A DNA stretch of 64,000 nt from Escherichia coli (GTDB lineage Bacteria; Pseudomonadota; Gammaproteobacteria; Enterobacterales; Enterobacteriaceae). Below, in pieces: positions 14,109 to 37,092 of this stretch; within the stretch, counting starts at the first letter, position 1; every line of letters begins with the position of its first letter. Position numbers and translations under genes: made by a program. The DNA is taken from assembly GCF_003334785.1 (NCBI RefSeq), contig NZ_QOWV01000001.1. One strand, written 5' to 3'. The notes beneath the pieces were generated by a model. It worked only from the letters and a program-made list of their open reading frames with translations. It did no database searches and had not been told where the DNA came from.

Positions 14109-14110
14109 TA

Positions 14111-14509: not shown

Positions 14510-14613
14510 GGTAAAACCGACTTAAAAGGAAAATCACAGGCGCGATGCTACTATGATTTTCCTGAGGAGAACAGAGGAGATACAGCGCCAGCCCCGAAGG
14601 ACTGGCAGTCTGG

Positions 14614-15153: not shown

Positions 15154-15182
15154 TTTACGATTCCGTAATCAAATGCTTAAGG

Positions 15183-15926: not shown

Positions 15927-16282
15927 GCACTCTCCTTGAGTTTTATGCAGGTGTTAATTAGCGGGCAATTGTACCCTGGTTAAGCCTCGGGTGGCAGCAT
16001 CAGGTCTTGTATGGAAAAGCATATCTTTGTAAAGCGGAGGTAATTGCTGGCCTTCAGGCATGGGCAAATCGCGGCAAGTGGCGACCGAGTTAATATTTGC
16101 GTAGCGAAAATATTTAAAAATTGATTTAAATCACATTAACCAGGATTCTCAATGCAACTTCTAAATTAATCCAGATCAATAAAGGGTGAATTATCATATG
16201 TAATGTGATCTATGTAGGATCATTTGTTACTCCAATGTAGGTATATTCGTCACGTTTTTATAACCATAACGACGGAGCGGAT

Positions 16283-16921
16283 ATGAAAAAGTTAACAGTG
16301 GCGGCTTTGGCAGTAACAACTCTTCTCTCTGGCAGTGCCTTTGCGCATGAAGCAGGCGAATTTTTTATGCGTGCAGGTTCTGCAACCGTACGTCCAACAG
16401 AAGGTGCTGGTGGTACGTTAGGAAGTCTGGGTGGATTCAGCGTGACCAATAACACGCAACTGGGCCTTACGTTTACTTATATGGCGACCGACAACATTGG
16501 TGTGGAATTACTGGCAGCGACGCCGTTCCGCCATAAAATCGGCACCCGGGCGACCGGCGATATTGCAACCGTTCATCATCTGCCACCAACACTGATGGCG
16601 CAGTGGTATTTTGGTGATGCCAGCAGCAAATTCCGTCCTTACGTTGGGGCAGGTATTAACTACACCACCTTCTTTGATAATGGATTTAACGATCATGGCA
16701 AAGAGGCAGGGCTTTCCGATCTCAGTCTGAAAGATTCCTGGGGAGCTGCCGGGCAGGTGGGGGTTGATTATCTGATTAACCGTGACTGGTTGGTTAACAT
16801 GTCAGTGTGGTACATGGATATCGATACCACCGCCAATTATAAGCTGGGCGGTGCACAGCAACACGATAGCGTACGCCTCGATCCGTGGGTGTTTATGTTC
16901 TCAGCAGGATATCGTTTTTAA
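16283..16921 (+). CDS. ompW: Outer membrane protein W
   Basis: 212 aa with signal peptide MKKLTVAALAVTTLLSGSAFA and beta-barrel ending ...AGYRF. Confidence 0.95.
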   Translation: MKKLTVAALAVTTLLSGSAFAHEAGEFFMRAGSATVRPTEGAGGTLGSLGGFSVTNNTQLGLTFTYMATDNIGVELLAATPFRHKIGTRATGDIATVHHLPPTLMAQWYFGDASSKFRPYVGAGINYTTFFDNGFNDHGKEAGLSDLSLKDSWGAAGQVGVDYLINRDWLVNMSVWYMDIDTTANYKLGGAQQHDSVRLDPWVFMFSAGYRF

Positions 16922-16935
16922 TTCCGCACAAAAAC

Positions 16936-16956
16936 GACCCCGTAATATACGGGGTC
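16936..16956. terminator. Hairpin between convergent ompW and yciE
   Basis: gaccccgta/tacggggtc inverted repeat 15 nt after ompW stop. Confidence 0.6.
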
Positions 16957-16980
16957 AATAAGGACATGGTATAAAGGGTA

Positions 16981-17487
16981 TTATTTCTTCGCTTCTACGC
17001 CATCAGTTTCAGAGCGAATTAAAAATTTCTCAGTTGTTTGCGGAATATTCTGAATCAGCCAGTCGGCCATTTGCTTTTCCTCATTTAAAATCGCTTCGAT
17101 GGTTGGAATTGAAGCTGTATCACCGGCATTTTTTGCTGCTGCTAATAGTGAGGTGTAACAGGCGATTTCAAATTGCTCGAAGACATATCCGCTAATAGAG
17201 CCTTTGACTATTTCATCAGAAGGGAATATACCACCGATTGACTGCCCAAGCGCAGCCATTTTACTCATGGAATCTTTAATGACTGAACGTGAAATGTCAT
17301 TACGATCAAGAATAGTTTCCAGTTGAACAATCTGGTTTTTGGTTTCACTAAGATGTTGTTCAATACGAGCGCGTAGTTCAGGATAATTATCTATACGGCT
17401 GGCCATGGATTCAAGCATAGATTCGGCTTGCTTTTCCATTGCGTGGGCGTCACGTAACCAGTCATGATAATGTTCAATACGATTCAT
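16981..17487 (-). CDS. yciE: Ferritin-like DUF892 stress protein YciE
   Basis: 168 aa; paralogous to adjacent yciF. Confidence 0.92.
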   Translation of the reverse strand: MNRIEHYHDWLRDAHAMEKQAESMLESMASRIDNYPELRARIEQHLSETKNQIVQLETILDRNDISRSVIKDSMSKMAALGQSIGGIFPSDEIVKGSISGYVFEQFEIACYTSLLAAAKNAGDTASIPTIEAILNEEKQMADWLIQNIPQTTEKFLIRSETDGVEAKK

Positions 17488-17532
17488 GAAAATGTCCTCT
17501 TTATAAAATGACTAAAAGTTAAAATTCATATT

Positions 17533-18033
17533 TCAGGCTTTATTTTCGGCTTTCTTATTTACGTTATTAATGGCCAGATCAGTCAGTTTGATGTCGGTGG
17601 CCTTTTCTTCTTCCAGGGTTTCTTTCAGAAGCTTCGCTGCTTTACGGTAACCTAATTGTTCAGCCAGCGTCGCTAATGTCCCGTAACTGGCAATCTCATA
17701 ATGCTCGACTTTCTGTGCTGCGGCAATCAGTGCGGCATCACGCACTTCGTTTTTCTCGGTACTTTCGATGACCTCATTAGCTTCTTCAATAAGACCTTCC
17801 ATTGCCACACATTTCATGCGCTTAATTTTCAGGTTCGATTCGGACTCCACAACTTGATCAATACGTTCAATCTGTCCATGAGTTTCCTCGAGGTGCGCAT
17901 GAAAAGCCTGACTTAATTTTTCATTTGATGTTGCTCTTGCGAGTTTTGCCAGTGCCCGGGTTAATTGTTTTTCTGCGCTGTAGGTATCTGAAAGCAGGTG
18001 AATAAATACATCTTCAATGGTCTTCATATTCAT
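17533..18033 (-). CDS. yciF: Ferritin-like DUF892 stress protein YciF
   Basis: 166 aa from ATG 18033 (MNMKTIEDVF...); ORF-track extension to 18081 rejected. Confidence 0.92.
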   Translation of the reverse strand: MNMKTIEDVFIHLLSDTYSAEKQLTRALAKLARATSNEKLSQAFHAHLEETHGQIERIDQVVESESNLKIKRMKCVAMEGLIEEANEVIESTEKNEVRDAALIAAAQKVEHYEIASYGTLATLAEQLGYRKAAKLLKETLEEEKATDIKLTDLAINNVNKKAENKA

Positions 18034-18118
18034 ATTTTTCTCCAGTGAAATCACTGCGAGCCATACGGCCCGCAGATGCAATTATCTTTATCAGCTGATA
18101 TTAATAATTAACGGTGAA

Positions 18119-18298
18119 TCAGGATTTGCCTGATTTATTACCACCGCTTTGTTGACCGCCTTTTTTACCCGCTTCAGATGCGCGTTGCGGATCATTTTTA
18201 AAATTACCGCCGCTATGCTGACCGCCTTTACGGCCTGCGTCGGATGCCTTCTCACGGTCTTCGGCGAAATTTCCTGAACCACCACGATGTTCGGCCAT
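18119..18298 (-). CDS. yciG: KGG-repeat stress protein YciG
   Basis: 59 aa from ATG 18298 (MAEHRGGSGNFAED...), with repeated ...SDAGRKGGQHSGGN / ...SEAGKKGGQQSGGN units. Confidence 0.88.
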   Translation of the reverse strand: MAEHRGGSGNFAEDREKASDAGRKGGQHSGGNFKNDPQRASEAGKKGGQQSGGNKSGKS

Positions 18299-18645
18299 GT
18301 TATTTCTCCCGTTGCGTTGCATTGTTTCATTAATATGAGTGTTGTGTGTCGACACTCATTAAAATTAGTCGCTAATGAGAATTAGTCAAATTAAGCGCAA
18401 CGAGAAGATAGAGGGAAAATATATTTTGAGGAACATTCTGGATATATTAACAATTACCTGAGGAATAAGTGACTTAGAGAAAATTATTGATTTTACTGGT
18501 GTTATGTTGCGGGATTAATTTGTTTGATTATATTACTGTTGGGCGGAAAAATGACGTAAGTTGACGTTCGACCGGGGTAAGCGAAACGGTAAAAAGATAA
18601 ATATTAAATGAATTTAGGATTTTTCCGGCTTCATTAAAGAAAGTT

Positions 18646-18675
18646 AAAATGCCGCCAGCGGAACTGGCGGCTGTG
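18646..18675 (-). terminator. trp operon terminator (trp t)
   Basis: Minus strand reads cagccgccagttccgctggcggcatttt directly after trpA stop. Confidence 0.85.
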
Positions 18676-18678
18676 GGA

Positions 18679-19485
18679 TTAACTGCGCGTCGCCGCTTTC
18701 ATCGGTTGTACAAAAACTTTCAGTGCCGCCAGCATTTTCTCTGGCTCATTAATATGTTGCTCGATGATTTTAACAATGGCCGAACCAGAAATCGCGCCCG
18801 CAGCTCCTGCATCAATCGCTGCTTTTACCTGATCCGGGGCGGAAATACCAAATCCCTGCAATGGAGGTGCAGCGTTGTACTCTTTCAGCTTCGCAACCAG
18901 ATGATTGAGGGGTAACGCGGCGCGGTTTTCTGCGCCGGTCACGCCTGCTCGTGACAGCAAATAGGTGTAACCACGACCGTAAGAGGCTATCTGGCGCAGC
19001 AGGTCGTCATCGGCATTTGGCGGGCAGATGAAGATAGGTGCGACATTATGACGCAACGCGGCCTGGCGGAAGGGCGCGGACTCTTCAACTGGCACATCGG
19101 CAACCAGCACCGAATCGACGCCGACTTTTTCGCACTGGGCATAAAACTCATCAATGCCTTTGTTAAACACCAGATTGGCATACATCAACAGGCCAATGGG
19201 AATGGTCGGGTGTTTCTGGCGAATCAGTGCCAGCATTTCAAAACATTGTGCCGGAGTCACACCTGCCGCAAAGGCGCGCAGAGTGGCGTTTTGAATCGTC
19301 GGGCCATCCGCCAGTGGGTCGGAGAAGGGGATACCTAACTCCAGCGCGTCAGCACCGGCTTCAATTAGCGTATCGATAATTTTCAATGACTGCTCAATGC
19401 CCGGATCACCGAGCGTGACGAAAGGAACGAATGCGCCTTCTTTGCGCTCCTTCAACTGGGCAAACAGAGATTCGTAGCGTTCCAT
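18679..19485 (-). CDS. trpA: Tryptophan synthase alpha subunit
   Basis: 268 aa [28 protein letters not shown]... Confidence 0.97.
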
Positions 19486-20678
19486 CAGATTTCCCCTCGT
19501 GCTTTCAAAATATCGTGAACGGTGAAGATGTCTTTATCGCCGCGACCGGAAAGGTTAACCACCAGTAGCTGCTCTTTATCCGGGTTTTCGCGCATCATTT
19601 TCAACGCATGGGCCAGGGCGTGGGAGGATTCCAGCGCCGGGATGATCCCTTCGTGCAGGCACAGCGTTTTGAAGGCTTCAAGGGCTTCATCATCGGTAAT
19701 AGACACGTAATCAGCGCGTCCAGTGCTGTTAAGATACGCGTGTTGTGGGCCGACAGACGGGAAATCCAGTCCGGCGGAGATGGAGTAAGATTCTTCAATC
19801 TGCCCGTCTTCGGTTTGCATCATCGGCGCTTTCATACCGAAATAGATACCCACGCGACCATGTTTTAGCGGTGCGCCGTGCTCGCCAGTTTCGATACCGT
19901 GACCACCTGGCTCCACACCAATCAGGCCGACGTTGGTTTCATTGATGAAATCAGCAAACATGCCGATGGCATTCGAACCGCCGCCAACACAGGCGATAAC
20001 GGCATCCGGCAGGCGACCTTCTCTTTCCAGAATCTGCGCTTTGGTTTCTTCGCCAATCATCCGCTGAAACTCACGCACAATGGTCGGATAAGGATGCGGG
20101 CCAGCTGCGGTGCCCAGCATATAGTGCGCGGTTTCGTAACTACCGGACCAGTCGCGCAGCGCCTCGTTACAGGCATCTTTCAGCGTCGCGGAACCGCTAT
20201 GCACCGGGATCACTTCCGCACCCATTAAGCGCATACGAAAAACGTTAGGCGACTGGCGTTCAACGTCTTTGGCACCCATATAAATACGGCATTTCAGGCC
20301 GAGCAGGGCGCTGGCAAGGGCCGACGCCACGCCATGCTGACCGGCACCGGTTTCGGCGATGATTTCGGTTTTACCCATCCGCTTCGCCAGCAACGCCTGC
20401 CCCAGCACCTGGTTAGTTTTATGCGCGCCGCCGTGCAGCAAATCTTCACGCTTGAGATACAGCGTGGTGTTCGTCCCGGCTGTAATGTTCTGGCATTTGG
20501 TCAGCGCGGTTGGACGCCCGGCATAGTTTTTCAGCAGGTCGTTGAACTGAGCCTGAAATTCAGGATCTTTTTGCGCACTGACAAAAGCTTCTTCCAGCTG
20601 GCGCAGAGCAGGCATCAGGATTTGTGGCACGTACATGCCGCCAAACTCACCAAAATAGGGGTTAAGTAATGTTGTCAT
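19485..20678 (-). CDS. trpB: Tryptophan synthase beta subunit
   Basis: 397 aa [21 protein letters not shown]...; 1-nt overlap with trpA. Confidence 0.97.
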
Positions 20679-20689
20679 TGTTCCTTTCC

Positions 20690-22051
20690 TTAATATGCGC
20701 GCAGCGTCTGGAAAACCGAGGCCAAAAGACGTGCGTCTTTGATGCCCGGTTGCGACTCTACAGCAGAATTAAAATCAAGTCCGGCGCAGCCGGTTTGTGC
20801 CGCTTCCACGCAGTTATCTGCGCCTAAGCCCCCCGCCAGCAGAACGTTGCCAAGCGATTGACCATTTAATAGTGACCAGTCAAAACGTTGCCCGCTTCCA
20901 CCCTGGCCGTTGTCTAAAACATATTTATCAACGTGCTGAAACTCGCGGGCGGGCAGGGTTTCACCGACGCTTAATGCTTTCCAGATGGCAACATGTGCTG
21001 GCAGAGCTTCACGCAGCGTATCGATATACAGCTGTTCTTCATTACCATGCAGTTGCACTGCCGCCAGCGATAACACCTTAGCTTTGTCCACCACATCGGC
21101 AATATCGTGATTGCGGAACACGCCAACATACTGCAACGGTGCCGCAGCCATCACTTCCTGCGCCTGTTCAACGTTGACGCAACGCGGTGATGTCGCAACA
21201 AAAATCAACCCACCGTAAATCGCGCCCGCGTCATAAGCTGCTTTAGCATCTTGCCCACGCGTCAGGCCACATACTTTATTCTCACCCAGCAACACCCGGC
21301 GCACGGCGGCGTGCAAATCGTCATGGGCCATCAACGCCGAACCAATCAGAAAACCGTTAGCGAAGTGGCTTAACTCGCGCACCTGAGCGTAAGTATTGAT
21401 GCCGGATTCGCTGATTACCGTCACGTTGTGCCCCAGTTTCGGCGCAAGCTCGCGGGTACGGTTGAGATCAATCGACAAATCACGCAGATCGCGGTTGTTG
21501 ATGCCAACGACCTTTGCTCCCAATGCAATGGCGCGCTCCTGTTCCTCTTCATTACTGACTTCGGTCAGCACCCCCATCTCCAGACTGTGAGCGACGGCGG
21601 CAAGCTGGCGATATTGGTCGTCATCCAGTACTGAAAGCATTAATAAGCAGGCATCGGCCTGGTAATAGCGCGCCAGATAGATCTGGTAAGGGTCGATAAT
21701 GAAGTCTTTACATAAAATCGGCTGCGGGGCGATTTGGCTGACGATGGGGAGGAAATTAAAGCTCCCCTGAAAATATTTCTCATCAGTCAGCACCGAAATT
21801 GCCGAAGCGTAATGTTTATAAATGGCGGCAATGCGTGCTGGATCGAAATCATCACGGATCACGCCTTTTGACGGCGACGCTTTCTTGCACTCCAGAATAA
21901 ACGCCGTGCGCGCACCCTGTAGCGCATCATAAAAATGTCGCGTGCTCGGCTGAACCTCATTCTGAAAACTGGCCAGCGGTTGCTGCTGTTTGCGGGCTTC
22001 TACCCAAATCGCCTTGTCTGCGACGATTTTCGCTAAAACGGTTTGCATCAT
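20690..22051 (-). CDS. trpC: Bifunctional indole-3-glycerol-phosphate synthase / phosphoribosylanthranilate isomerase
   Basis: 453 aa [26 protein letters not shown]... Confidence 0.96.
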
Positions 22052-23647
22052 TTACCCTCGTGCCGCCAGTGCGGTGACTCTGTCGTAAGCGGAACCACTG
22101 CGCAGTACCTCAAGAACGGTTTGCGCATTGGCTTGCAGATCTTCATGGCCATGCAGGCGCATTAACATGGCGACGTTCGCAGCGACGGCTGCTTCATGGG
22201 CGGCGTCGCCTTTACCTTGTAACAAACGTGTTAAAATGTCACGGTTTTCTTCCGGTGTTCCGCCTGCCAGTTGCTCCTGGTGGTAGGGTGTCAGGCCAAA
22301 GTCTTCTGCGGTGAGCTGATAGCTTTTAATTTCGCCGTCATGCAGTTCGGCAACGATTGTCGGCGCGTGTAATGAAACTTCATCCATCCCGCCGCTGTGC
22401 ACCACCGCCGCGCGTTGATACCCCAGCACGCGCAAGGTTTCGGCAATCGGCAGCACCAGTTCCGGACTATAAACACCAATTAACGCCAGCGGCGGATGCG
22501 CCGGGTTAATCAATGGCCCCAGCACATTGAACAGGGTGCGGGTTTTCAGTTGCTGGCGAACCGGCATCGCGTGGCGGAATCCGGTGTGATACTTCGGCGC
22601 AAAGAGGAAACATACACCTAACTCATCCAGCGCCTGGCGCGATTTATCGGCGTTCATATCAAGATTAATACCGAACGCCGCCAGCAGATCGGACGAACCA
22701 GATTTACTGGAGACGCTACGGTTGCCGTGTTTCGCCACTTTCAGCCCACAGGCCGCGGCGACAAACGCACTGGCGGTAGAAATATTGATACTGTTGCTGC
22801 CGTCACCGCCAGTACCGACGATATCAGCAAACAGATAATCCGGGCGCGGGAACGGCGCTGCGTTTTCCAGTAGCGCGGTTGCTGCCCCGGCGATCTCGTT
22901 CGGGTGCTCACCGCGAATTTTCATGCTCACCAGCGCCGCCGCCAGTTGTTCCGGCTTCAGCTCGCCACGCACCACCACTGAAAACAGCTGGTGGCTTTCT
23001 TGTTGGCTAAGCGTCTGCGCCTGATACAGTTTTTCCAGAATCGGTTGCAGCGTGTTGGCTGGCTCTAGTTTCTGCTGCGCCCAGGCCAGCGTTTGTTCCA
23101 GCAGGCGAGCGCCCTGGGTGGTGAGAATGGATTCCGGATGGAACTGGAATCCACAAACGCGATCCGCATCGTGACGTACTGCCATCACCATGCCATTAAA
23201 ATGGGCGTTGATGGTTAAACCGGCCGGAATGTTACTGCCAACCAGCGAGTGATAACGCGCCACCGGCAGCGGGTTTGTTAATCCGGCAAACATCGCCTGA
23301 CCGTCATGTTCAATGCTGGAGGCTTTACCGTGGAGAATTTCGCCCGCCTGACCGACATAGCCCCCGTAAGCTTCGACAATCGCCTGATGTCCGAGGCAAA
23401 TGCCAATAATGGGCAGCTTGCCACGCAAGCGGGTGAGGAGTTCCGGCATACAACCGGCTTCGCTCGGCACACCGGGGCCAGGAGAAAGCATCAGCACCGG
23501 ATTGCTCATGGTCGCCAGGCGTTCAATTAAGGTTTGCGCCGGAATATGGTTGCGGTAAATCACCACGTTATGCCCATTGCTGCGCAACTGATCTGCCAGG
23601 TTGTACGTAAAAGAGTCGATATTATCGAGCAGCAGAATGTCAGCCAT
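22052..23647 (-). CDS. trpD: Anthranilate synthase component II / anthranilate phosphoribosyltransferase
   Basis: 531 aa [22 protein letters not shown]... Confidence 0.96.
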
Positions 23648-25209
23648 CAGAAAGTCTCCTGTGCATGATGCGCGGTGGCAATAGCGCGCAGTACAGCGCG
23701 GGCTTTGTTACGGGTTTCGTCGGCTTCCGACTGCGGAACAGAATCAAGGACTACACCAGCACCCGCTTGCACGGTGGCGATACCGTTTTCCACCAGCGCC
23801 GAGCGGATCACAATGCAGGTGTCGAGATCGCCATGCGCGGTGAAATAACCTACCGCGCCGCCGTAGCTGCCGCGGCGACGACCTTCCGCCTCGGCAATTA
23901 ACTGCATAGCGCGTACTTTCGGCGCACCGCTTAACGTCCCCATATTCATACAGGCGCGATAAGCGTGCAGGGCGTCAAGATCGTGACGCAGTTCGCCGAC
24001 TACGCGAGAGACGAGGTGCATCACATAGGAATAACGGTCAACTTTGGTGAGATCGGCGACGTAGCGGCTGCCGGGGGTGCAAATGCGTGCCAGATCATTA
24101 CGGGCGAGATCAACCAGCATCAGATGTTCAGACAGCTCTTTATGATCGGTACGCATTTCCAGTTCAATACGGCTGTCGAGATCTCTGTCCAGTGAACCAT
24201 CGGCGCGACGACCGCGTGGGCGTGTTCCGGCAATCGGGTAGATCTCAATCTGGCGGCTGGTGGCATCATACTTGAGCGAGCTTTCCGGCGACGCGCCAAA
24301 TAGGGTGAAATCATTATCCTGCATAAAAAACATGTACGGGCTGGGATTACTCTTTTTCAGCACGTAATAGGCCGCCAGCGGTGACGGGCAGGGCAGAGAG
24401 AAACGGCGAGATGGCACCACCTGGAAAATTTCTCCAGCGCGAATCGCTTTTTGCAACAAACGCACTACGCCACCGAACTCTTCATCGCTCTGATTACATT
24501 CACAACGCATATGCGGCACGGAAACCACTGGCAGCGGCGGCGCGGCTTCGGTCAGTTGCTGACGTAGTTCGTTCAGGCGAGCAGTGAGACGTTGTTTTTC
24601 TTCTTCATTCGGAGCAAACAGGCTGGCCTGAATACGGGTGCTTTTTTTCTGATGGTCAATCACCATCAGCGTTTCAGCGAGATAAAAACAGAAATCAGGG
24701 CAGTTATTTTCCGCTGACAGTTGCGGTAAATCTTCAAATCCCGCCACAAGGTCATAAGAGAACAGGCCGCCGAAGAACATGGCTTCTCGTTCTTCCTTCG
24801 GTACATTCAACAGATTCTGCAATAAACGGAAAGCGTCAAAAACCGAAAGGGAGCATAAGCGGGCGTCTTCATCCAGCAGTGGACTGACAGGGGGGAAGCG
24901 CAGCACACGGCAGTTTGGTGATTGTTCACTTTCCACACCCGCAGGCAGGGCGTTATCCAGTAGTGCCAGCAGGGCTTCGCCGTTGCCGGAAAGTGCCTGG
25001 ATTGTGACAGTGTCACCTAAAGCTGTAATGCGCAGCGCACTGTCTACCAGCAGCAGGCTTTTTAAATCATCTTTGCTGTCGATATCTGCGGATTCCAGCA
25101 GCAGCGTTGCCGGACGATCCCCACACAACTGGTGAAAAAGCGCGGTGGGATTGTCGCGATAAGCGCCTTCGCAGGTTAGCAGTTCGAGAGTCGGTTTTTG
25201 TGTTTGCAT
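23647..25209 (-). CDS. trpE: Anthranilate synthase component I
   Basis: 520 aa [28 protein letters not shown]...; 1-nt overlap with trpD. Confidence 0.97.
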
Positions 25210-25230
25210 TGTTATTCTCTAATTTTGTTC

Positions 25231-25258
25231 AAAAAAAAGCCCGCTCATTAGGCGGGCT
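25231..25258 (-). terminator. trp attenuator (leader terminator)
   Basis: Minus strand reads agcccgcctaatgagcgggc followed by eight T; located between trpL and trpE. Confidence 0.92.
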
Positions 25259-25300
25259 GGGTATCTGATTGCTTTACGCATGGTGAATACACTGCCCGTT

Positions 25301-25345
25301 TCAGGAAGTGCGCCACCAACCTTTCAGTACGAAAATTGCTTTCAT
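25301..25345 (-). CDS. trpL: trp operon leader peptide (14 aa, tandem Trp codons)
   Basis: Minus strand atgaaagcaattttcgtactgaaaggttggtggcgcacttcctga = [14 protein letters not shown]; Trp codons at complement 25313-25318. Confidence 0.93.
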
Positions 25346-25370
25346 TGTCGATACCCTTTTTACGTGAACT

Positions 25371-25407
25371 TGCGTACTAGTTAACTAGTTCGATGATTAA
25401 TTGTCAA
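25371..25407 (-). promoter_or_regulatory. trp promoter with TrpR operator
   Basis: Perfect dyad gtactagttaactagtac (operator overlapping -10 TTAACT) and -35 TTGACA at complement 25402-25407. Confidence 0.88.
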
Positions 25408-25482
25408 CAGCTCATTTCAGAATATTTGCCAGAACCGTTATGATGTCGGCGCAAAAAACATTATCCAGAACGGGAGTGCGCC

Positions 25483-26364
25483 TTGAGCGACACGAATTAT
25501 GCAGTGATTTACGACCTGCACAGCCATACCACAGCTTCCGATGGCTGCCTGACGCCAGAAGCATTGGTGCACCGTGCAGTCGAGATGCGCGTCGGCACCC
25601 TGGCGATCACCGACCATGACACCACAGCTGCAATCGCGCCAGCAAGAGAGGAAATTTCACGTTCGGGACTGGCGTTGAATCTTATTCCCGGCGTGGAAAT
25701 TTCCACGGTCTGGGAAAATCATGAAATTCATATTGTCGGGCTGAATATTGATATTACTCATCCGCTAATGTGTGAGTTCCTCGCGCAGCAGACAGAACGG
25801 CGCAATCAGCGGGCGCAGCTGATTGCCGAAAGACTTGAAAAAGCGCAAATACCTGGGGCGCTGGAAGGCGCACAACGACTGGCGCAGGGCGGCGCAGTGA
25901 CGCGCGGTCATTTTGCGCGTTTCCTTGTTGAGTGCGGCAAAGCCAGTTCAATGGCGGATGTCTTTAAAAAGTATCTGGCGCGCGGGAAAACCGGATACGT
26001 TCCGCCACAGTGGTGTACAATAGAACAAGCTATTGATGTCATTCATCATTCTGGCGGTAAGGCGGTGCTAGCTCATCCTGGGCGGTACAATCTTAGTGCT
26101 AAATGGCTGAAAAGATTGGTTGCGCATTTTGCCGAACACCACGGTGACGCGATGGAAGTCGCGCAGTGCCAGCAATCGCCCAATGAACGTACCCAGCTGG
26201 CGGCCCTTGCGCGTCAGCATCATTTATGGGCATCACAAGGATCTGATTTTCATCAGCCATGCCCGTGGATCGAACTGGGTCGTAAACTCTGGCTGCCCGC
26301 AGGCGTTGAAGGCGTCTGGCAGCTATGGGAACAGCCGCAGAACACCACAGAGAGGGAATTATGA
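25483..26364 (+). CDS. rnm: PHP-domain 5'-3' exoribonuclease RNase AM (TrpH/YciV)
   Basis: 293 aa; PHP metal-binding motifs (DLHSHTTASDG, ITDHD). Confidence 0.9.
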   Translation: MSDTNYAVIYDLHSHTTASDGCLTPEALVHRAVEMRVGTLAITDHDTTAAIAPAREEISRSGLALNLIPGVEISTVWENHEIHIVGLNIDITHPLMCEFLAQQTERRNQRAQLIAERLEKAQIPGALEGAQRLAQGGAVTRGHFARFLVECGKASSMADVFKKYLARGKTGYVPPQWCTIEQAIDVIHHSGGKAVLAHPGRYNLSAKWLKRLVAHFAEHHGDAMEVAQCQQSPNERTQLAALARQHHLWASQGSDFHQPCPWIELGRKLWLPAGVEGVWQLWEQPQNTTEREL

Positions 26365-26981
26365 GCCAGTTTTTTTATATTCATCCTGATAACCCACAGC
26401 AACGTCTGATCAACCAGGCGGTGGAGATCGTGCGTAAAGGCGGGGTGATTGTTTATCCAACTGATTCCGGCTATGCGCTCGGCTGTAAAATTGAAGATAA
26501 AAACGCGATGGAGCGTATTTGTCGTATTCGCCAGCTGCCGGACGGTCACAACTTTACCCTGATGTGTCGCGATCTTTCTGAACTCTCGACCTATTCATTT
26601 GTTGATAACGTTGCGTTTCGTTTAATGAAAAACAACACGCCGGGCAACTATACCTTCATCCTGAAGGGGACGAAGGAAGTGCCACGCCGTCTGTTGCAGG
26701 AAAAACGCAAAACCATCGGTATGCGTGTGCCTTCTAACCCTATCGCTCAGGCGTTACTTGAAGCATTGGGCGAACCGATGCTTTCCACTTCGCTAATGCT
26801 GCCAGGCAGCGAATTTACCGAATCGGACCCGGAAGAAATTAAAGATCGTCTGGAAAAACAGGTAGATTTGATTATTCACGGCGGCTATCTCGGGCAGAAA
26901 CCGACAACGGTTATTGATCTTACCGATGATACGCCGGTCGTGGTGCGTGAAGGCGTAGGTGATGTGAAGCCTTTCTTATAA
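26361..26981 (+). CDS. yciO: YrdC/Sua5-family protein YciO
   Basis: 206 aa from ATG 26361 (MSQFFYIHPDNPQQRL...); ATGA overlap with rnm stop. Confidence 0.9.
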   Translation: MSQFFYIHPDNPQQRLINQAVEIVRKGGVIVYPTDSGYALGCKIEDKNAMERICRIRQLPDGHNFTLMCRDLSELSTYSFVDNVAFRLMKNNTPGNYTFILKGTKEVPRRLLQEKRKTIGMRVPSNPIAQALLEALGEPMLSTSLMLPGSEFTESDPEEIKDRLEKQVDLIIHGGYLGQKPTTVIDLTDDTPVVVREGVGDVKPFL

Positions 26982-27008
26982 CAAATTGCGTTCCACGGAT
27001 GGAAGACT

Positions 27009-28904
27009 ATGGCAGGGAAGTTTCGCTGCATTTTGCTGTTGATAGCAGGGCTGTTTGTATCATCTCTAAGTTATGCAGAAAACACGGAGATCCCTTCTTA
27101 TGAAGAAGGGATCTCGCTCTTTGATGTTGAAGCCACTCTGCAACCAGATGGGGTGCTCGACATCAAAGAAAATATTCATTTTCAGGCGCGAAATCAGCAG
27201 ATTAAGCACGGCTTTTATCGTGATTTACCACGACTATGGATGCAGCCTGATGGGGACGCTGCACTGCTGAACTATCATATTGTTGGCGTCACCCGTGATG
27301 GTATTCCTGAACCCTGGCATCTTGACTGGCATATCGGGTTAATGAGTATTGTCGTGGGCGATAAACAACGTTTCTTGCCTCAAGGCGACTATCATTATCA
27401 AATTCATTATCAGGTTAAAAATGCTTTCCTGCGTGAGGGGGATTCTGATCTGCTAATCTGGAACGTGACCGGTAACCACTGGCCGTTTGAAATTTATAAG
27501 ACCCGTTTTTCTCTCCAGTTCTCTAATATTGCGGGTAATCCATTTAGCGAAATCGATCTCTTTACCGGAGAAGAGGGCGACACATATCGTAATGGCCGCA
27601 TCCTTGAGGACGGAAGAATTGAATCCCGCGATCCGTTTTATCGTGAAGATTTCACGGTCCTCTACCGCTGGCCTCACGCTTTACTTAGCAATGCCTCGGC
27701 TCCGCAAACGACGAATATTTTCAGCCATCTTCTTTTACCCTCCACGTCATCGTTGTTAATTTGGTTTCCGTGTCTGTTCCTGGTTTGTGGATGGTTATAT
27801 CTCTGGAAGCGCAGGCCGCAATTTACGCCGGTAGATGTGATTGAAACCGATGTCATTCCGCCAGATTACACGCCCGGCATGTTACGTCTCGATGCGAAGC
27901 TAGTTTACGACGATAAAGGTTTTTGTGCCGATATCGTAAATCTGATTGTGAAAGGAAAAATTCATCTGGAAGATCAGTCTGACAAGAACCAGCAAATCCT
28001 GATTCGTGTTAATGAAGGCGCGACCAGAAATAATGCGGTATTACTGCCCGCAGAGCAGTTATTACTGGAAGCGTTATTTCGTAAAGGCGATAAGGTCGTT
28101 CTTACGGGGAGACGCAACAGAGTCTTACGCAGGGCATTTTTACGGATGCAGAAATTTTATCTGCCGCGTAAAAAGTCTTCGTTTTACCGGTCTGATACTT
28201 TTTTGCAATGGGGTGGACTGGCAATATTGGCGGTCATTCTTTACGGTAACTTGAGTCCTGTAGGCTGGGCAGGAATGAGTCTGGTGGGCGATATGTTTAT
28301 TATGATCTGCTGGATTATTCCTTTTTTATTTTGTTCCCTTGAGCTTTTGTTTGCCCGCGATGATGACAAGCCTTGCGTTAATCGTGTAATCATCACTTTG
28401 TTTTTACCACTGATTTGTTCAGGCGTGGCCTTCTATTCTCTCTACATCAATGTCGGAGATGTATTCTTTTACTGGTATATGCCAGCGGGTTATTTTACCG
28501 CTGTTTGCCTGACCGGTTATCTCACTGGCATGGGGTATATTTTTCTGCCAAAGTTTACCCAAACTGGACAGCAACGTTATGCCCACGGTGAAGCTATCGT
28601 TAACTATCTTGCGCGTAAAGAGGCAGCAACACACAGTGGACGTCGGCGGAAAGGGGAAACACGGAAACTGGATTACGCGTTGCTAGGTTGGGCTATATCG
28701 GCAAATTTGGGGAGGGAATGGGCGTTACGCATTGCCCCTTCGCTTTCTTCGGCGATTCGCGCTCCAGAGATTGCCCGTAACGGCGTTTTATTCTCATTAC
28801 AGACGCACCTAAGTTGCGGGGCCAATACCAGTTTGTTGGGGCGAAGTTATTCCGGTGGTGGTGCTGGCGGCGGCGCGGGTGGCGGAGGCGGTGGTGGCTG
28901 GTAA
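27009..28904 (+). CDS. yciQ: DUF2207 family membrane protein YciQ with Gly-rich C-terminal tail
   Basis: 631 aa; N-terminal signal/TM, several TM helices in C-terminal half, tail SGGGAGGGAGGGGGGGW. Confidence 0.88.
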   Translation: MAGKFRCILLLIAGLFVSSLSYAENTEIPSYEEGISLFDVEATLQPDGVLDIKENIHFQARNQQIKHGFYRDLPRLWMQPDGDAALLNYHIVGVTRDGIPEPWHLDWHIGLMSIVVGDKQRFLPQGDYHYQIHYQVKNAFLREGDSDLLIWNVTGNHWPFEIYKTRFSLQFSNIAGNPFSEIDLFTGEEGDTYRNGRILEDGRIESRDPFYREDFTVLYRWPHALLSNASAPQTTNIFSHLLLPSTSSLLIWFPCLFLVCGWLYLWKRRPQFTPVDVIETDVIPPDYTPGMLRLDAKLVYDDKGFCADIVNLIVKGKIHLEDQSDKNQQILIRVNEGATRNNAVLLPAEQLLLEALFRKGDKVVLTGRRNRVLRRAFLRMQKFYLPRKKSSFYRSDTFLQWGGLAILAVILYGNLSPVGWAGMSLVGDMFIMICWIIPFLFCSLELLFARDDDKPCVNRVIITLFLPLICSGVAFYSLYINVGDVFFYWYMPAGYFTAVCLTGYLTGMGYIFLPKFTQTGQQRYAHGEAIVNYLARKEAATHSGRRRKGETRKLDYALLGWAISANLGREWALRIAPSLSSAIRAPEIARNGVLFSLQTHLSCGANTSLLGRSYSGGGAGGGAGGGGGGGW

Positions 28905-29114
28905 TTAAGCTGATGTTAATCGAAACAAGCTTTAACCATAAAGATAGTGTAGTATGTTGCGCCTCAAAGCCAGGCCGATAAACGTCGAGTCGTTTACTTA
29001 AGGCCTGAAGAGTTCAAACAGACTTTACTATCAGTGAGTCAGATGTAAGTTCTGACTCACTGTTGCACAAAAGCATATCAGACGCCTGGGAAGGCGACAC
29101 CAAAAGGAAGCTCT

Positions 29115-29990
29115 ATGAGCGAAAAGCTACAGAAAGTGCTGGCGCGTGCCGGCCACGGTTCTCGCCGTGAAATCGAATCTATTATTGAAGCCGGTCGTGT
29201 GAGTGTTGATGGCAAAATTGCTAAACTCGGCGATCGTGTTGAAGTTACCCCTGGATTGAAAATCCGTATCGATGGTCACCTGATTTCGGTACGTGAGTCC
29301 GCTGAACAAATTTGTCGCGTTCTGGCCTATTACAAACCGGAAGGTGAGTTGTGTACCCGTAACGATCCGGAAGGACGTCCAACGGTGTTTGACCGTCTGC
29401 CAAAACTGCGTGGCGCACGCTGGATTGCCGTGGGTCGCTTGGACGTTAATACCTGTGGTCTGCTGCTGTTCACCACCGATGGTGAACTGGCAAACCGTTT
29501 AATGCACCCAAGCCGTGAAGTTGAACGTGAATATGCCGTGCGTGTATTTGGTCAGGTTGACGACGCGAAACTGCGTGATTTGAGTCGTGGCGTGCAGTTG
29601 GAAGATGGTCCGGCAGCTTTTAAAACCATCAAGTTCAGCGGCGGCGAAGGGATCAACCAGTGGTACAACGTGACTCTGACCGAAGGCCGTAACCGTGAAG
29701 TTCGTCGTCTGTGGGAAGCGGTTGGTGTGCAGGTGAGCCGCCTGATCCGTGTTCGTTACGGTGATATCCCACTGCCAAAAGGTCTGCCACGCGGTGGCTG
29801 GACGGAGCTGGACCTCGCCCAGACTAACTATCTGCGCGAACTGGTGGAGCTACCGCCAGAAACCAGCTCTAAAGTCGCTGTAGAAAAAGACCGTCGTCGC
29901 ATGAAGGCGAATCAGATTCGTCGTGCGGTGAAACGTCACAGTCAGGTGAGCGGCGGTCGTCGTTCTGGCGGACGTAATAATAACGGTTAA
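29115..29990 (+). CDS. rluB: 23S rRNA pseudouridine(2605) synthase RluB
   Basis: 291 aa; S4 domain [21 protein letters not shown]..., Arg/Gly-rich tail. Confidence 0.95.
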
Positions 29991-29997
29991 TCAAAGT

Positions 29998-30024
29998 ATG
30001 CCGGACGTCATATCCGGCATTTTT
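29998..30024. terminator. Terminator hairpin between convergent rluB and btuR
   Basis: atgccgga/tccggcat inverted repeat followed by TTTT 30021-30024. Confidence 0.75.
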
Positions 30025-30029
30025 ACAGA

Positions 30030-30620
30030 TTAATAATCGATCCCTATCTGCGCTTTTACACCGGCATCAAACGCATGTTTGACGGGGCGTAATTCACTTA
30101 CCGTATCTGCCAGTTCAAGAATATCCCGATGACAACCACGACCCGTGATAATCACCGTCTGTTGATGTGGACGTTCATTTAACGCCTGCACCACTTCTTC
30201 CAGTGGCAAATAGTCATACGCCACCATATACGTCAGTTCATCAAGCAAAACCATATCCAGTGAGGAATCAGCAAGCATCCGCTTTGCATGTTGCCAGACT
30301 TCGCGGCAGGCGGCGGTATCAGACTCGCGGTTTTGTGTATCCCAGGTAAAGCCCGTTGCCATCACCTGAAACTCAACGCCATGTGGCTCCAGCAGATTGC
30401 GTTCGCCATTAGGCCAGGTGCCTTTAATAAACTGCACGACGCCTACTTTTTTTCCGTGACCAACTGCGCGTGTTGCCGTACCAAATGCCGCGGTGGTTTT
30501 GCCTTTTCCATTGCCGGTAAAGACGATGATAATACCGCGTTCATCCTGGGCCTGGGCCACACGAGCATCTACTTTTTCTTTCACTCGCTGCTGACGCTGT
30601 TGGTAGCGTTCATCACTCAT
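30030..30620 (-). CDS. btuR: Cob(I)yrinic acid a,c-diamide (corrinoid) adenosyltransferase
   Basis: 196 aa; P-loop GNGKGKTTAA. Confidence 0.95.
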   Translation of the reverse strand: MSDERYQQRQQRVKEKVDARVAQAQDERGIIIVFTGNGKGKTTAAFGTATRAVGHGKKVGVVQFIKGTWPNGERNLLEPHGVEFQVMATGFTWDTQNRESDTAACREVWQHAKRMLADSSLDMVLLDELTYMVAYDYLPLEEVVQALNERPHQQTVIITGRGCHRDILELADTVSELRPVKHAFDAGVKAQIGIDY

Positions 30621-31375
30621 TGGGAAATTCCTGGTTTACGGCCCGGTTGGGCGTCAAAGGTCATGCCGGTTTTACGGCGGCTGTCATCGCCCATCAGCCA
30701 GAGGTAGAGCGGCATGATATCAGCGGGTGTTTTAAGTTTCTGTGGATCTTCGGTCGGGAAGGCGCTGGCACGCATTGCGGTGCGCGTACCGCCTGGGTTA
30801 ATGCAGTTGACACGCAGGCGCTGCTGATATTCATCGGCCAGTACCTGCATCATCCCTTCGGTGGCAAATTTCGACGCTGCATATGCACCCCAGTTGGCTC
30901 GTCCCTGACGTCCAACGCTTGATGAAGTAAAGACCAGTGAACCGGCGTCCGATTTGAGTAATAAAGGAAGCAGTGCCTGGGTGAGCATAAAGGTGGCATT
31001 AACGTTGACCTGCATGACGTCCTGCCAGACCTGCGGATTTTGTTCGCTCATTGGGCAAACATCGCCGAGCAATCCGGCATTATGCAAAACACCATCCAGA
31101 CGCGGATAATTAACGGCAATGCGCTGTGCCAGTTGTTGGCAATTTTCGGACGTGCAGGTCAGCAAATCGAGAATAAACCACTGTGGCTGACGCCCAGTTT
31201 CTTCGTTTATGTGGCTGGCTACCTGACGTAATTTTTCTTCATTACGGCCCAACAGAATCACTGTCGCACCATAGCGTGCATACGTCATCGCGGCTTCACG
31301 ACCAATACCATCGCTGGCTCCCGTCACCAGGATAATGCGATCATTGAGTAAATCTTGTTTTGGCTGGTAATGCAT
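30617..31375 (-). CDS. yciK: Short-chain dehydrogenase/reductase YciK
   Basis: 252 aa; Rossmann motif VTGASDGIG; ATGA overlap with btuR start. Confidence 0.92.
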   Translation of the reverse strand: MHYQPKQDLLNDRIILVTGASDGIGREAAMTYARYGATVILLGRNEEKLRQVASHINEETGRQPQWFILDLLTCTSENCQQLAQRIAVNYPRLDGVLHNAGLLGDVCPMSEQNPQVWQDVMQVNVNATFMLTQALLPLLLKSDAGSLVFTSSSVGRQGRANWGAYAASKFATEGMMQVLADEYQQRLRVNCINPGGTRTAMRASAFPTEDPQKLKTPADIMPLYLWLMGDDSRRKTGMTFDAQPGRKPGISQ

Positions 31376-31594
31376 GGCTACTCCTCAACGACGTTGTCTG
31401 TCGCGCTGCCAGTGTACTTTATGACTTTGGGGCTTTATGCCTGAAACAGAAGGGCATTTCAATCAGCCTGGGGCGATAACACCGCAAAATGGATACTTTG
31501 TCATACTTTCGCTGCAATAACATCTCTGCGAGACGGCTTAACATGCCTGTTGTAAACTGTGAGCCAAAGCGTTGTTTAACCAAGGTGGGGACTC

Positions 31595-32644
31595 GTGGAA
31601 TTGTTGTCTGAATATGGTTTGTTTTTGGCGAAAATCGTTACCGTTGTGCTAGCGATTGCGGCGATTGCCGCCATTATTGTCAATGTTGCTCAACGTAATA
31701 AACGCCAGCGTGGCGAGTTACGGGTCAACAATCTCAGCGAACAGTATAAGGAGATGAAAGAAGAACTGGCCGCGGCGCTGATGGACTCACATCAGCAAAA
31801 ACAGTGGCACAAAGCGCAGAAGAAAAAGCATAAGCAAGAAGCGAAAGCAGCAAAAGCGAAAGCCAAACTGGGCGAGGTGGCAACTGACAGTAAACCCCGC
31901 GTCTGGGTGCTGGATTTTAAAGGCAGCATGGACGCCCATGAAGTGAACTCGCTACGTGAAGAGATAACGGCTGTACTCGCAGCATTCAAACCGCAGGATC
32001 AGGTTGTGCTCCGTCTGGAAAGCCCTGGTGGCATGGTGCATGGTTACGGGCTGGCGGCTTCGCAACTGCAGCGTCTGCGCGATAAAAACATTCCTTTAAC
32101 TGTTACGGTAGACAAAGTCGCTGCCAGCGGCGGTTACATGATGGCCTGTGTGGCGGACAAAATTGTTTCCGCACCGTTTGCTATTGTGGGTTCCATTGGC
32201 GTGGTGGCGCAAATGCCCAACTTTAACCGCTTCCTGAAAAGCAAAGATATTGATATCGAACTGCACACTGCCGGGCAGTATAAGCGCACGCTGACGTTGC
32301 TGGGTGAAAATACCGAAGAAGGGCGGGAGAAATTCCGCGAAGAGTTGAACGAAACGCATCAGTTGTTTAAAGATTTTGTGAAGCGTATGCGTCCTTCTCT
32401 GGATATTGAACAGGTGGCAACGGGTGAACACTGGTACGGACAACAGGCGGTAGAGAAAGGCCTGGTTGATGAAATCAACACCAGTGATGAAGTTATTCTT
32501 AGCCTGATGGAAGGCCGTGAAGTGGTCAATGTACGCTATATGCAGCGTAAACGACTCATTGACCGATTCACCGGCAGCGCGGCAGAGAGCGCCGATCGAT
32601 TGTTGCTACGCTGGTGGCAGCGGGGTCAAAAGCCATTGATGTAA
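31595..32644 (+). CDS. sohB: Inner-membrane peptidase S49 family SohB
   Basis: 349 aa, GTG start, N-terminal TM then Lys-rich linker and ClpP/crotonase-like domain. Confidence 0.92.
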   Translation: MELLSEYGLFLAKIVTVVLAIAAIAAIIVNVAQRNKRQRGELRVNNLSEQYKEMKEELAAALMDSHQQKQWHKAQKKKHKQEAKAAKAKAKLGEVATDSKPRVWVLDFKGSMDAHEVNSLREEITAVLAAFKPQDQVVLRLESPGGMVHGYGLAASQLQRLRDKNIPLTVTVDKVAASGGYMMACVADKIVSAPFAIVGSIGVVAQMPNFNRFLKSKDIDIELHTAGQYKRTLTLLGENTEEGREKFREELNETHQLFKDFVKRMRPSLDIEQVATGEHWYGQQAVEKGLVDEINTSDEVILSLMEGREVVNVRYMQRKRLIDRFTGSAAESADRLLLRWWQRGQKPLM

Positions 32645-32650
32645 AAGACA

Positions 32651-32681
32651 AACGCGAGGCTAAGACCTCGCGTTTTGCTTT
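32651..32681. terminator. Terminator hairpin shared by convergent sohB and yciN
   Basis: aacgcgagg/cctcgcgtt stem, T-rich tail; overlaps yciN stop. Confidence 0.7.
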
Positions 32682-32931
32682 AATCAACCAGATGATATTT
32701 TTCTGAAAGCACATGGGCCAGGTGTTTGAACATATTAAACACCGCGGTGCTTTTGGCTGTTGGCAATCCTTGTTCATCTAAAAAGTAGTCGCCGGTAAAT
32801 ACCAGCACGCCATTACGCTGCGTGACGCCGGTGGCTTCAATCCCTGCGAGCGTATCCTCATGCTCACGAATGATTTTGTTGGCCTCTTTCAACAGCGTTT
32901 CGCGGTCGATGGGTTGTGTCTCTTTGTTCAT
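32680..32931 (-). CDS. yciN: Small protein YciN (DUF2498)
   Basis: 83-aa [29 protein letters not shown]... Confidence 0.88.
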
Positions 32932-33310
32932 TATTTACTCCTTAAACAAGGACATTAGTCTACGCCAGGCATGGCTTGCAGACAAATATACCACGCTGGT
33001 GGCAAGAGCGCCTTACTGGCAACTTTGGATTTTGCATGCTAATAAAGTTGCGTATCGGATTTTATCAGGTACAGTGTGACGCTTTCGTCAATCTGGCAAT
33101 AGATTTGCTTGACATTCGACCAAAATTCCGTCGTGCTATAGCGCCTGTAGGCCAAGACCTGTTAACTCAGTCACCTGAATTTTCGTGAACAGAGTCACGA
33201 CAAGGGGTTGATATCCGCAGAGAGCGAGTCCATATCGGTAACTCGTTGCCAGTGGAAGGTTTATCAACGTGCGACGCATTCCTGGAAGAATCAAATTAGG
33301 TAAGGTGAAT

Positions 33311-35908
33311 ATGGGTAAAGCTCTTGTCATCGTTGAGTCCCCGGCAAAAGCCAAAACGATCAACAAGTATCTGGGTAGTGACTACGTGGTGAAATCCAGC
33401 GTCGGTCACATCCGCGATTTGCCGACCAGTGGCTCAGCTGCCAAAAAGAGTGCCGACTCTACCTCCACCAAGACGGCTAAAAAGCCTAAAAAGGATGAAC
33501 GTGGCGCTCTCGTCAACCGTATGGGGGTTGACCCGTGGCACAATTGGGAGGCGCACTATGAAGTGTTGCCTGGTAAAGAGAAGGTCGTCTCTGAACTGAA
33601 ACAACTGGCTGAAAAAGCCGACCACATCTATCTCGCAACCGACCTTGACCGCGAAGGGGAAGCCATTGCATGGCACCTGCGGGAAGTGATTGGGGGTGAT
33701 GATGCGCGCTATAGCCGAGTGGTGTTTAACGAAATTACTAAAAACGCGATCCGCCAGGCATTTAACAAACCGGGTGAGCTGAATATTGATCGTGTTAATG
33801 CCCAGCAGGCGCGTCGCTTTATGGACCGCGTGGTGGGGTATATGGTTTCGCCGCTGCTATGGAAAAAGATCGCTCGTGGTCTGTCTGCCGGTCGTGTGCA
33901 GTCGGTGGCGGTTCGCCTGGTGGTCGAGCGTGAGCGTGAAATTAAAGCGTTCGTGCCGGAAGAGTTCTGGGAAGTCGATGCCAGCACGACCACGCCATCT
34001 GGTGAAGCGTTGGCGTTACAGGTGACTCATCAGAACGACAAACCGTTCCGTCCGGTCAACAAAGAACAAACTCAGGCTGCGGTAAGTCTGCTGGAAAAAG
34101 CGCGCTACAGCGTGCTGGAACGTGAAGACAAACCGACAACCAGTAAACCTGGCGCTCCTTTTATTACCTCTACGCTGCAACAAGCTGCCAGCACCCGTCT
34201 TGGATTTGGCGTGAAAAAAACCATGATGATGGCGCAGCGTTTGTATGAAGCAGGCTATATCACTTACATGCGTACCGACTCCACTAACCTGAGTCAGGAC
34301 GCGGTAAATATGGTTCGCGGTTATATCAGCGATAATTTTGGTAAGAAATATCTGCCGGAAAGTCCGAATCAGTACGCCAGCAAAGAAAACTCACAGGAAG
34401 CGCACGAAGCGATTCGTCCTTCTGACGTCAATGTGATGGCGGAATCGCTGAAGGATATGGAAGCAGATGCGCAGAAACTGTACCAGTTAATCTGGCGTCA
34501 GTTCGTTGCCTGCCAGATGACCCCAGCGAAATATGACTCCACGACGCTGACCGTTGGTGCGGGCGATTTCCGCCTGAAAGCACGCGGTCGTATTTTGCGT
34601 TTTGATGGCTGGACAAAAGTGATGCCTGCGTTGCGTAAAGGCGATGAAGATCGCATCTTACCAGCAGTTAATAAAGGCGATGCTCTGACGCTCGTTGAAC
34701 TTACACCAGCCCAGCACTTTACCAAGCCGCCAGCCCGTTTCAGTGAAGCATCGCTGGTTAAAGAGCTGGAAAAACGCGGTATCGGTCGTCCGTCTACCTA
34801 TGCGTCGATCATTTCGACCATTCAGGATCGTGGCTACGTGCGAGTAGAAAATCGTCGTTTCTATGCGGAAAAAATGGGCGAAATCGTCACCGATCGCCTT
34901 GAAGAAAATTTCCGCGAGTTAATGAACTACGACTTTACCGCGCAGATGGAAAACAGCCTCGACCAGGTGGCAAATCACGAAGCAGAGTGGAAAGCTGTAC
35001 TGGATCACTTCTTCTCGGATTTCACCCAGCAGTTAGATAAAGCTGAAAAAGATCCGGAAGAGGGTGGTATGCGCCCGAACCAGATGGTTCTGACCAGCAT
35101 TGACTGCCCGACTTGTGGTCGCAAAATGGGGATTCGCACAGCGAGCACCGGGGTATTCCTTGGCTGTTCTGGCTATGCGCTGCCGCCGAAAGAGCGTTGC
35201 AAAACCACCATTAACCTGGTGCCGGAAAACGAAGTGCTGAACGTGCTGGAAGGCGAAGATGCTGAAACCAACGCGCTGCGCGCAAAACGTCGTTGCCCGA
35301 AATGCGGCACGGCGATGGACAGCTATCTCATCGATCCGAAACGTAAGTTGCATGTCTGTGGTAATAACCCAACCTGCGACGGTTACGAGATCGAAGAGGG
35401 CGAATTCCGCATTAAAGGTTATGACGGCCCGATCGTTGAGTGTGAAAAATGTGGCTCTGAAATGCACCTGAAAATGGGGCGTTTCGGTAAATACATGGCC
35501 TGCACCAACGAAGAGTGTAAAAACACACGTAAGATTTTACGTAACGGCGAAGTGGCACCACCGAAAGAAGATCCGGTGCCATTACCTGAGCTGCCGTGCG
35601 AAAAATCAGATGCTTATTTCGTGCTGCGTGACGGTGCTGCCGGTGTGTTCCTGGCTGCCAACACTTTCCCGAAATCGCGTGAAACGCGTGCGCCACTGGT
35701 GGAAGAGCTTTATCGCTTCCGCGACCGTCTGCCGGAAAAACTGCGTTATCTGGCCGATGCGCCACAGCAGGATCCGGAAGGTAATAAGACCATGGTTCGC
35801 TTTAGCCGTAAAACCAAACAGCAATATGTCTCTTCGGAAAAAGACGGAAAGGCGACTGGCTGGTCAGCATTTTATGTTGATGGCAAATGGGTTGAAGGAA
35901 AAAAATAA
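33311..35908 (+). CDS. topA: DNA topoisomerase I
   Basis: 865 aa from ATG 33311 ([31 protein letters not shown]); Toprim domain, three C-terminal Cys4 zinc ribbons. Confidence 0.97.
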
Positions 35909-35939
35909 CCTTTAATTCTGTCAGGTTTTTATAAACAAA

Positions 35940-35964
35940 GGGTCGCGAAAGCGGCCCTTTTTTA
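35940..35964 (+). terminator. Rho-independent terminator after topA
   Basis: gggtcgc GAAA gcggccc hairpin followed by TTTTTT. Confidence 0.85.
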
Positions 35965-36093
35965 TTGCATATTATTTTTTCTTCACACCTATACACTAAG
36001 GCTATAAATGATATAGTGGTTATAGTTAGCACCTTTTTTATTATTAAATCGTATTAGTCACCCGCCAGGTGTGACGAAAAAACGATGTTCTGA

Positions 36094-37092
<999 letters not shown>

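Follow-up and report, generated by a model that had tools for sequence, protein, structure and literature searches.

A segment of the 64,000-nucleotide stretch of Escherichia coli DNA analysed here (hereafter referred to as the window) is, with near certainty, the control region of the E. coli trpLEDCBA operon in its native chromosomal setting, acting through both repression and ribosome-mediated attenuation. The control region is real, and positions 25229-25410 span it on the minus strand, from the -35 hexamer to the U tract. It is a feature already known, being the type example of a region that joins TrpR repression to ribosome-mediated attenuation, and nothing among our results contradicted its reading as a native trp control region. 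A preliminary description of this DNA had called it a complete textbook promoter-operator-leader-attenuator arrangement upstream of trpE; the 351-bp identity to K-12 and the full-length match to the Rfam family RF00513, both described below, bear this out. The features and their coordinates are collected in Table 1.

Table 1. Features of the trp control region and operon, with coordinates in the window and relative to the transcription start
Feature	Window position	Strand	Relative to +1	Remarks
-35 hexamer TTGACA	25407..25402	-		Read directly; matches the consensus at 6/6 positions
-35/-10 spacer	17 bp	-		Within the 16-18 bp expected of a sigma-70 promoter
trpO, CGAACTAGTTAACTAGTACG	25373..25392	-	-21..-2	20 bp; imperfect dyad overlapping the -10 hexamer
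-10 hexamer TTAACT	25384..25379	-		Read directly; matches TATAAT at 3/6 positions
Transcription start, A of AAGUUCACG	25371	-	+1	Position from the literature
trpL Shine-Dalgarno AAGGGU	25358..25353	-	+14..+19	G run ends 8 nt before the AUG
trpL ORF, ATG (25345) to TGA	25301..25345	-		14 codons; WP_001700591.1 in the identical K-12 sequence
Tandem Trp codons UGG UGG	25318..25313	-	+54..+59	trpL codons 10 and 11; 5' edge of segment 1
1:2 hairpin (pause / anti-antiterminator)	25281..25318	-	+54..+91	Inner part in the Rfam consensus structure
2:3 antiterminator	25253..25298	-	+74..+86 with +107..+119	
3:4 terminator hairpin AGCCCGCCUAAUGAGCGGGCU	25238..25258	-	+114..+134	AGCCCGC-N7-GCGGGCT; terminator and inverted-repeat scans, Rfam structure
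U8 tract, end of attenuated transcript	25231..25238	-	+134..+141	
trpE	23647..25209	-	ATG at +163	First structural gene; protein identical to K-12 TrpE
trpD, trpCF, trpB, trpA	18679..23647	-		TrpD A224V relative to K-12

Identity of the locus to that of K-12

In a genome search, positions 25150-25500 of the window (351 bp) matched K-12 MG1655 and thousands of further E. coli genomes with 100% identity, and no substitution relative to K-12 was found between -100 and +220. The RefSeq annotation of the K-12 counterpart comprises trpL, the "Trp leader region", trpE and, divergently oriented upstream, rnm (trpH/yciV). The sequence of positions 25150-25500 was present in 5422 of the 5426 complete E. 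coli genomes, and 5342 records of the E. coli collection matched it with at least 99% identity. The four remaining complete genomes lacked any counterpart of the trp control region; matches on plasmids were seen in 6-9 places in the collection, and some genomes carried up to four copies. The missing, plasmid-borne and supernumerary copies probably represent deletions and engineered or F-prime copies.

The locus is native, since positions 5150..45500 of the window are colinear with K-12 from oppB to osmB, over 40,351 bp and with 99.973% identity. Over this interval, MG1655 and the window differed by 11 substitutions and by no indels or gaps, and none of the substitutions fell in the trp control region. 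The amino acid changes relative to MG1655 were TrpD A224V, AcnA S522G, OppF S325A and OppD V230G. The central 25 kb (positions 12500-37499) was 100% identical to wild isolates, including VG48B2, NCTC9041 and NCTC9100. By these comparisons, the strain is closely related to K-12 without being K-12 itself.

Downstream of the control region, trpE, trpD, trpCF, trpB and trpA were each full length and devoid of internal stop codons. The ATG of trpE lies 162 nt past the transcription start given in the literature, matching the published 162-nt leader. The gene for the repressor, trpR, was absent from the 64-kb window; in E. coli it lies elsewhere on the chromosome. The preliminary description had found nothing novel in the region and had proposed that it serve as an internal positive control of locus integrity, a judgement with which the intact trpEDCBA genes agree. 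As a control, the region marks the window as native E. coli chromosome with an intact, wild-type trp regulatory region, and it shows that a classic element is correctly picked up by the scanning pipeline.

Promoter and TrpR operator

The two promoter hexamers named in the preliminary description, TTGACA and TTAACT, were read directly on the minus strand (Table 1), a strand that the description had left unstated. The arrangement TTGACA-N17-TTAACT occurred only once in the window, and trpP has the hexamers and the spacing of a sigma-70 promoter, its start site being derived from the literature. With +1 placed at 25371 on that authority, the AUG codons of trpL and trpE fall at +27 and +163, respectively. 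The hexamer pair by itself was statistically unremarkable, 34 of 100 shuffled sequences containing a match with at most one mismatch. A generic sigma-70 scan did not report the trp promoter and gave a plus-strand site instead, because TTAACT agrees with TATAAT at just three of the six positions. The promoter assignment therefore rests on the identity to the characterised K-12 promoter and on the literature. On the plus strand, positions 25416-25444 hold a promoter-like sequence (TTCAGA-17-TATGAT) facing the divergent rnm (trpH/yciV), whose TTG start is at 25483. To judge from its sequence and orientation, this element may be the rnm promoter, which would then lie back to back with that of trp.

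The trp operator was found as CGAACTAGTTAACTAGTACG (GTACTAGTTAACTAGTTC on the plus strand), a dyad that overlaps the promoter and has CTAG half-sites 8 bp apart. An inverted-repeat scan showed that its 10-nt arms are 90% complementary, with nine of the ten pairs symmetric. Matches to the operator string with two or fewer mismatches numbered one in the 64 kb, as compared with 0.00 expected from shuffles. The preliminary description had quoted a perfect dyad, gtactagttaactagtac, in which the promoter was said to be embedded. That string does not occur in the window, where the plus-strand operator departs from it at one position and lacks perfect two-fold symmetry. The embedding holds for the -10 hexamer, which lies inside the dyad, and fails for the -35 hexamer, which lies outside, 10 bp upstream of the dyad edge. 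The string GTACTAGTTAACTAGTAC / gtactagttaactagtac is presumably the idealised symmetric operator of TrpR-DNA structural studies. It has 17 of 18 bases in common with the natural operator, including the ACTAGTTAACTAGT core and the two CTAG steps; a single outer pair (GAAC... versus ...GTAC) breaks the symmetry of the natural operator. The discrepancy shows that the earlier reader had replaced the actual DNA with a remembered, idealised operator, a slip typical of sequence reading unaided by tools. Because the error concerns the quoted sequence, the interpretation of the region is unchanged. A paper on TrpR (PMC7518442) does not print the operator sequence.

None of the 65 fetched loci contained the perfect dyad. 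The natural 18-nt core, GAACTAGTTAACTAGTAC, was found in 33 fetched loci, including those of Citrobacter, Enterobacter, Leclercia and Vibrio. As far as these sequences tell, the asymmetry of the operator is its conserved natural state, reaching as far as Vibrio.

Several variants of the region were seen among the fetched loci. E. coli Br_190_kylling has an 8-bp tandem duplication, AACTAGTT, within the trp operator at about positions 91-98 of its locus; the duplication creates a third CTAG half-site and leaves the first TTAACT 17 bp from the -35 hexamer. The operator matches of C. amalonaticus and V. mediterranei read (C/T)GAACTAGTTAACTAGTTAA, and these two may carry a similar extended operator repeat. 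E. coli O145 RM8995-C1 combines a CTAG to CTGG change in the operator with Gly9Ala in TrpL, and MINF_1A has a G to T change in the terminator loop together with a C to A change a short way upstream of the start site. None of these four changes is present in the window.

Leader peptide and attenuator

The 14-codon leader with tandem Trp codons, the attenuator hairpin and the U8 tract, all of which the preliminary description had listed, lie inside 25229-25410. Comparison with the published leader returned identity to K-12, and neither the Trp codons nor the 3:4 hairpin carried a substitution. The region thus contains a Shine-Dalgarno sequence and an ORF with Trp codons, followed by an intrinsic terminator before trpE. 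The terminator stem has seven pairs, six of them G-C, followed by eight T residues that end 22 nt ahead of the trpE ATG. The U tract of the EC45 locus is one residue shorter (U7), a natural variation absent from the window.

In a search against Rfam, window positions 25324..25231 on the minus strand matched RF00513 (Trp_leader) with 93.1 bits, compared with a gathering score of 41 (E = 1.4e-20). The match was full length, covering model positions 1-100 of 100. Only two Rfam families reached their thresholds in the whole window, Trp_leader being one of them. The other was the enterobacterial sRNA STnc180, which scored 198 bits at 37762-37964 on the plus strand, in the cysB-acnA interval (ymiA/yciX region). 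A match to isrK scored 16.4 bits, compared with its gathering score of 50, and was dismissed as a chance match driven by the terminator. The sequence identity to K-12, the motifs and the RNA family match are all direct observations on the window.

Leader RNA folding and ribosome position

Folding with ViennaRNA reproduced the alternative 1:2, 2:3 and 3:4 structures as published, in line with the preliminary description. The predicted energies were -17.5 kcal/mol for the 1:2 hairpin (folded over +50..+95), -15.6 kcal/mol for the 2:3 antiterminator and -14.0 kcal/mol for the 3:4 terminator. The hairpins compete, as the 2:3 structure takes 5 nt of the 5' arm of the terminator (+115..+119) and the 1:2 structure uses segment 2 (+74..+86). 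The 141-nt leader as a whole folded at -46.9 kcal/mol, as compared with -33.5 +/- 3.6 kcal/mol for shuffled sequences (z = -3.69), and none of 200 shuffles was as stable. Taken with the single operator match and the Rfam E value, this rules out chance as the origin of the element.

To mimic different ribosome positions, we restricted folding to the RNA lying 3' of the ribosome, at the stage before the 3' arm of the terminator is made and with an assumed footprint size. With either the first or the second Trp codon in the A site, the window leader formed the 2:3 structure, which extended into the terminator arm by five pairs. Placing the ribosome at the UGA codon left no pairs into this arm. 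The outcome was unchanged for footprints of 10-16 nt. In silico, the regulatory codons are thus placed such that segment 2 is freed by a stall and blocked by a ribosome that has reached the stop codon. We extended the simulation to 41 distinct leaders from Escherichia, Citrobacter, Enterobacter, Leclercia, Erwinia, Pantoea, Affinibrenneria and Vibrio. The antiterminator formed upon a stall at Trp in all 41 and at the stop codon in two of them; the terminator was retained at the stop codon in every case. Both the mutual exclusivity of the hairpins and their dependence on ribosome position are shown here in silico.

At equilibrium with segment 1 masked, the terminator fold of the window leader was more stable than the antiterminator fold (-20.3 versus -15.6 kcal/mol), and the same held for 40 of the 41 leaders. 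The switch must therefore be kinetic, that is, co-transcriptional. Under this folding model, the antiterminator must form first and must last until the polymerase clears the U tract, which fits the classical model. Equilibrium folds of the entire transcript with a masked ribosome retained the terminator in all 41 leaders, since segment 3 is then paired with the ribosome-binding region of the free 5' leader.

The minimum free energy fold of the free 141-nt leader contains a pairing between GGGUAUC (+16..+22; 25350-25356) and GAUACCC (+107..+113; 25259-25265), both on the minus strand. The former is the ribosome-binding region of trpL and the latter is part of segment 3. This pairing was present in the predicted folds of 31 of the 35 non-Vibrio leaders. 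Yanofsky's group reportedly proposed in the 1980s that such pairing limits trpL translation.

Conservation among related leaders

Relatives of the leader were collected by a single plain-pattern scan of species-representative genomes, anchored on the Trp-codon segment and the T run. The scan returned 59 loci, of which we kept 42, all from Enterobacterales or Vibrio; chance matches in unrelated phyla and one Dickeya locus without a leader ORF were left out. Every one of the 42 retained loci encodes a GWWRT(S) leader peptide.

In a MAFFT alignment of 34 Enterobacterales leaders, in which segment 1 is fixed by the search anchor, the covariation measures equalled those of shuffles. Column by column, the stems were conserved rather than covarying, and the CAGAUAC block was invariant across all 34 sequences. 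The fraction of paired positions was 80-82%, versus 23-55% in controls with a slid structure, a comparison biased by the structure having been taken from the window itself. MAFFT had moved the terminator stem of Erwiniaceae by one column, which produced false "unpaired" cells. RNAalifold, run on the same alignment, did not recover the structure (consensus, -3.99 kcal/mol). From Enterobacterales to Vibrio, segments 2, 3 and 4 appear to have changed in concert.

Alternative and additional readings

The region might in principle have been an engineered trp-promoter cassette, inserted from an expression vector, rather than the native locus. Many vectors employ the trp promoter, and some matches in the E. 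coli collection are on plasmids. Synteny refutes such an origin: more than 40 kb of gapless colinearity with K-12 surrounds the region, with the divergent rnm upstream and the full trpLEDCBA downstream, and the central 25 kb is identical to natural isolates, so that we regard a cassette as extremely improbable. We give just as little weight to the idea that the attenuator is a decayed relic, leaving the operon under TrpR repression alone or under no control, an idea that no result favours; decay is contradicted by the lack of any substitution relative to the functional K-12 element and by the intact Trp codons, stems and U8. Tryptophan might also be sensed as in Bacillus and other Firmicutes, by a TRAP-type protein on (G/U)AG repeats or by a T-box riboswitch. 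Here too no point was found in favour, and we dismiss the proposal altogether: +1..+141 contains one GAG/UAG triplet, as compared with the 9-11 of a TRAP site, and, isrK aside, neither T-box nor any other Rfam family matched the leader even at E <= 1.

A further reading adds to the attenuator explanation and does not replace it. The terminated leader of about 140 nt might also act in trans, as the Hfq-dependent sRNA rnTrpL that pairs with dnaA and other mRNAs, so that the locus would be a dual-function RNA gene. The 140-nt E. coli rnTrpL is reported to destabilise dnaA mRNA, to depend on Hfq and to affect sanA and mhpC (Li et al. 2021, as described in a 2025 review, PMC12612679). The window encodes exactly this RNA, identical to that of K-12, and the invariance of CAGAUAC in the 34 leaders would be consistent with a trans role. 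Nothing in the sequence bears on the trans function, however, and the invariance is also explained by cis roles of the block, namely its parts in the 2:3 stem and in the pairing with the trpL ribosome-binding region. We therefore regard the dual function as a serious possibility that stays somewhat short of an even chance. The fuller version, in which the 141-nt leader acts in trans as rnTrpL and the pairing of the invariant CAGAUACC block with the ribosome-binding site is a further conserved control element, we put forward only tentatively. If it holds, the CAGAUACC pairing might stop trpL from being translated repeatedly, or the element might provide a seed for targets. Both the trans-acting RNA and the CAGAUACC pairing are already in the literature in some form, so neither would be new even if true.

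Proposed mechanism

The preferred reading of the region as the native trp control region suggests the following course of events. Trp-bound TrpR would occupy the operator over the -10 hexamer and block RNA polymerase. Those transcripts that do start would carry the 14-codon trpL ORF. With little charged tRNA-Trp available, the ribosome would stall at the tandem UGG codons and cover segment 1; segment 2 could then pair with segment 3 as soon as the latter is made, tying up the 5' arm of the terminator and allowing read-through into trpE. When tryptophan is plentiful, the ribosome would reach the UGA codon and cover segment 2, so that the 3:4 hairpin and U8 would form and transcription would stop at about +141. 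From published work on K-12, whose sequence is identical here, we infer the site of transcription initiation, the binding of TrpR, the pause at the 1:2 hairpin and the response in vivo. Yanofsky and co-workers established that read-through of the K-12 trp leader responds to charged tRNA-Trp (summarised in PMC12612679).

Comparison with known systems

The trpP/trpO/trpL attenuator of K-12 (RF00513) is matched by the window base for base, with the same neighbours, the 162-nt leader, the 14-residue peptide, the hairpins and U8; the control regions show no difference. Among the Rfam leader families, Trp_leader gave the best match and no other family matched. The his, phe, thr, leu and ilv leader-peptide attenuators of Enterobacteria share its architecture, in which a short ORF enriched in the regulatory codon is combined with alternative hairpins and an intrinsic terminator ahead of the first structural gene. 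The trp leader differs from them in having just two regulatory codons and an extra layer of control by a repressor.

Six Vibrio trp leaders have the GWWRT motif and the operator core GAACTAGTTAACTAGTAC in common with E. coli, and they share its terminator/antiterminator logic. They differ in that the leader peptide is 36 residues long, the stop codon lies 42 nt past the second Trp codon and the terminator has 10 bp. Their terminator stem is also different (GCCCACUC/GAGUGGGC) and is accompanied by a matching upstream copy of the 3' arm of the terminator. According to the folding model, the three-segment logic is thus kept in Vibrio with a different sequence.
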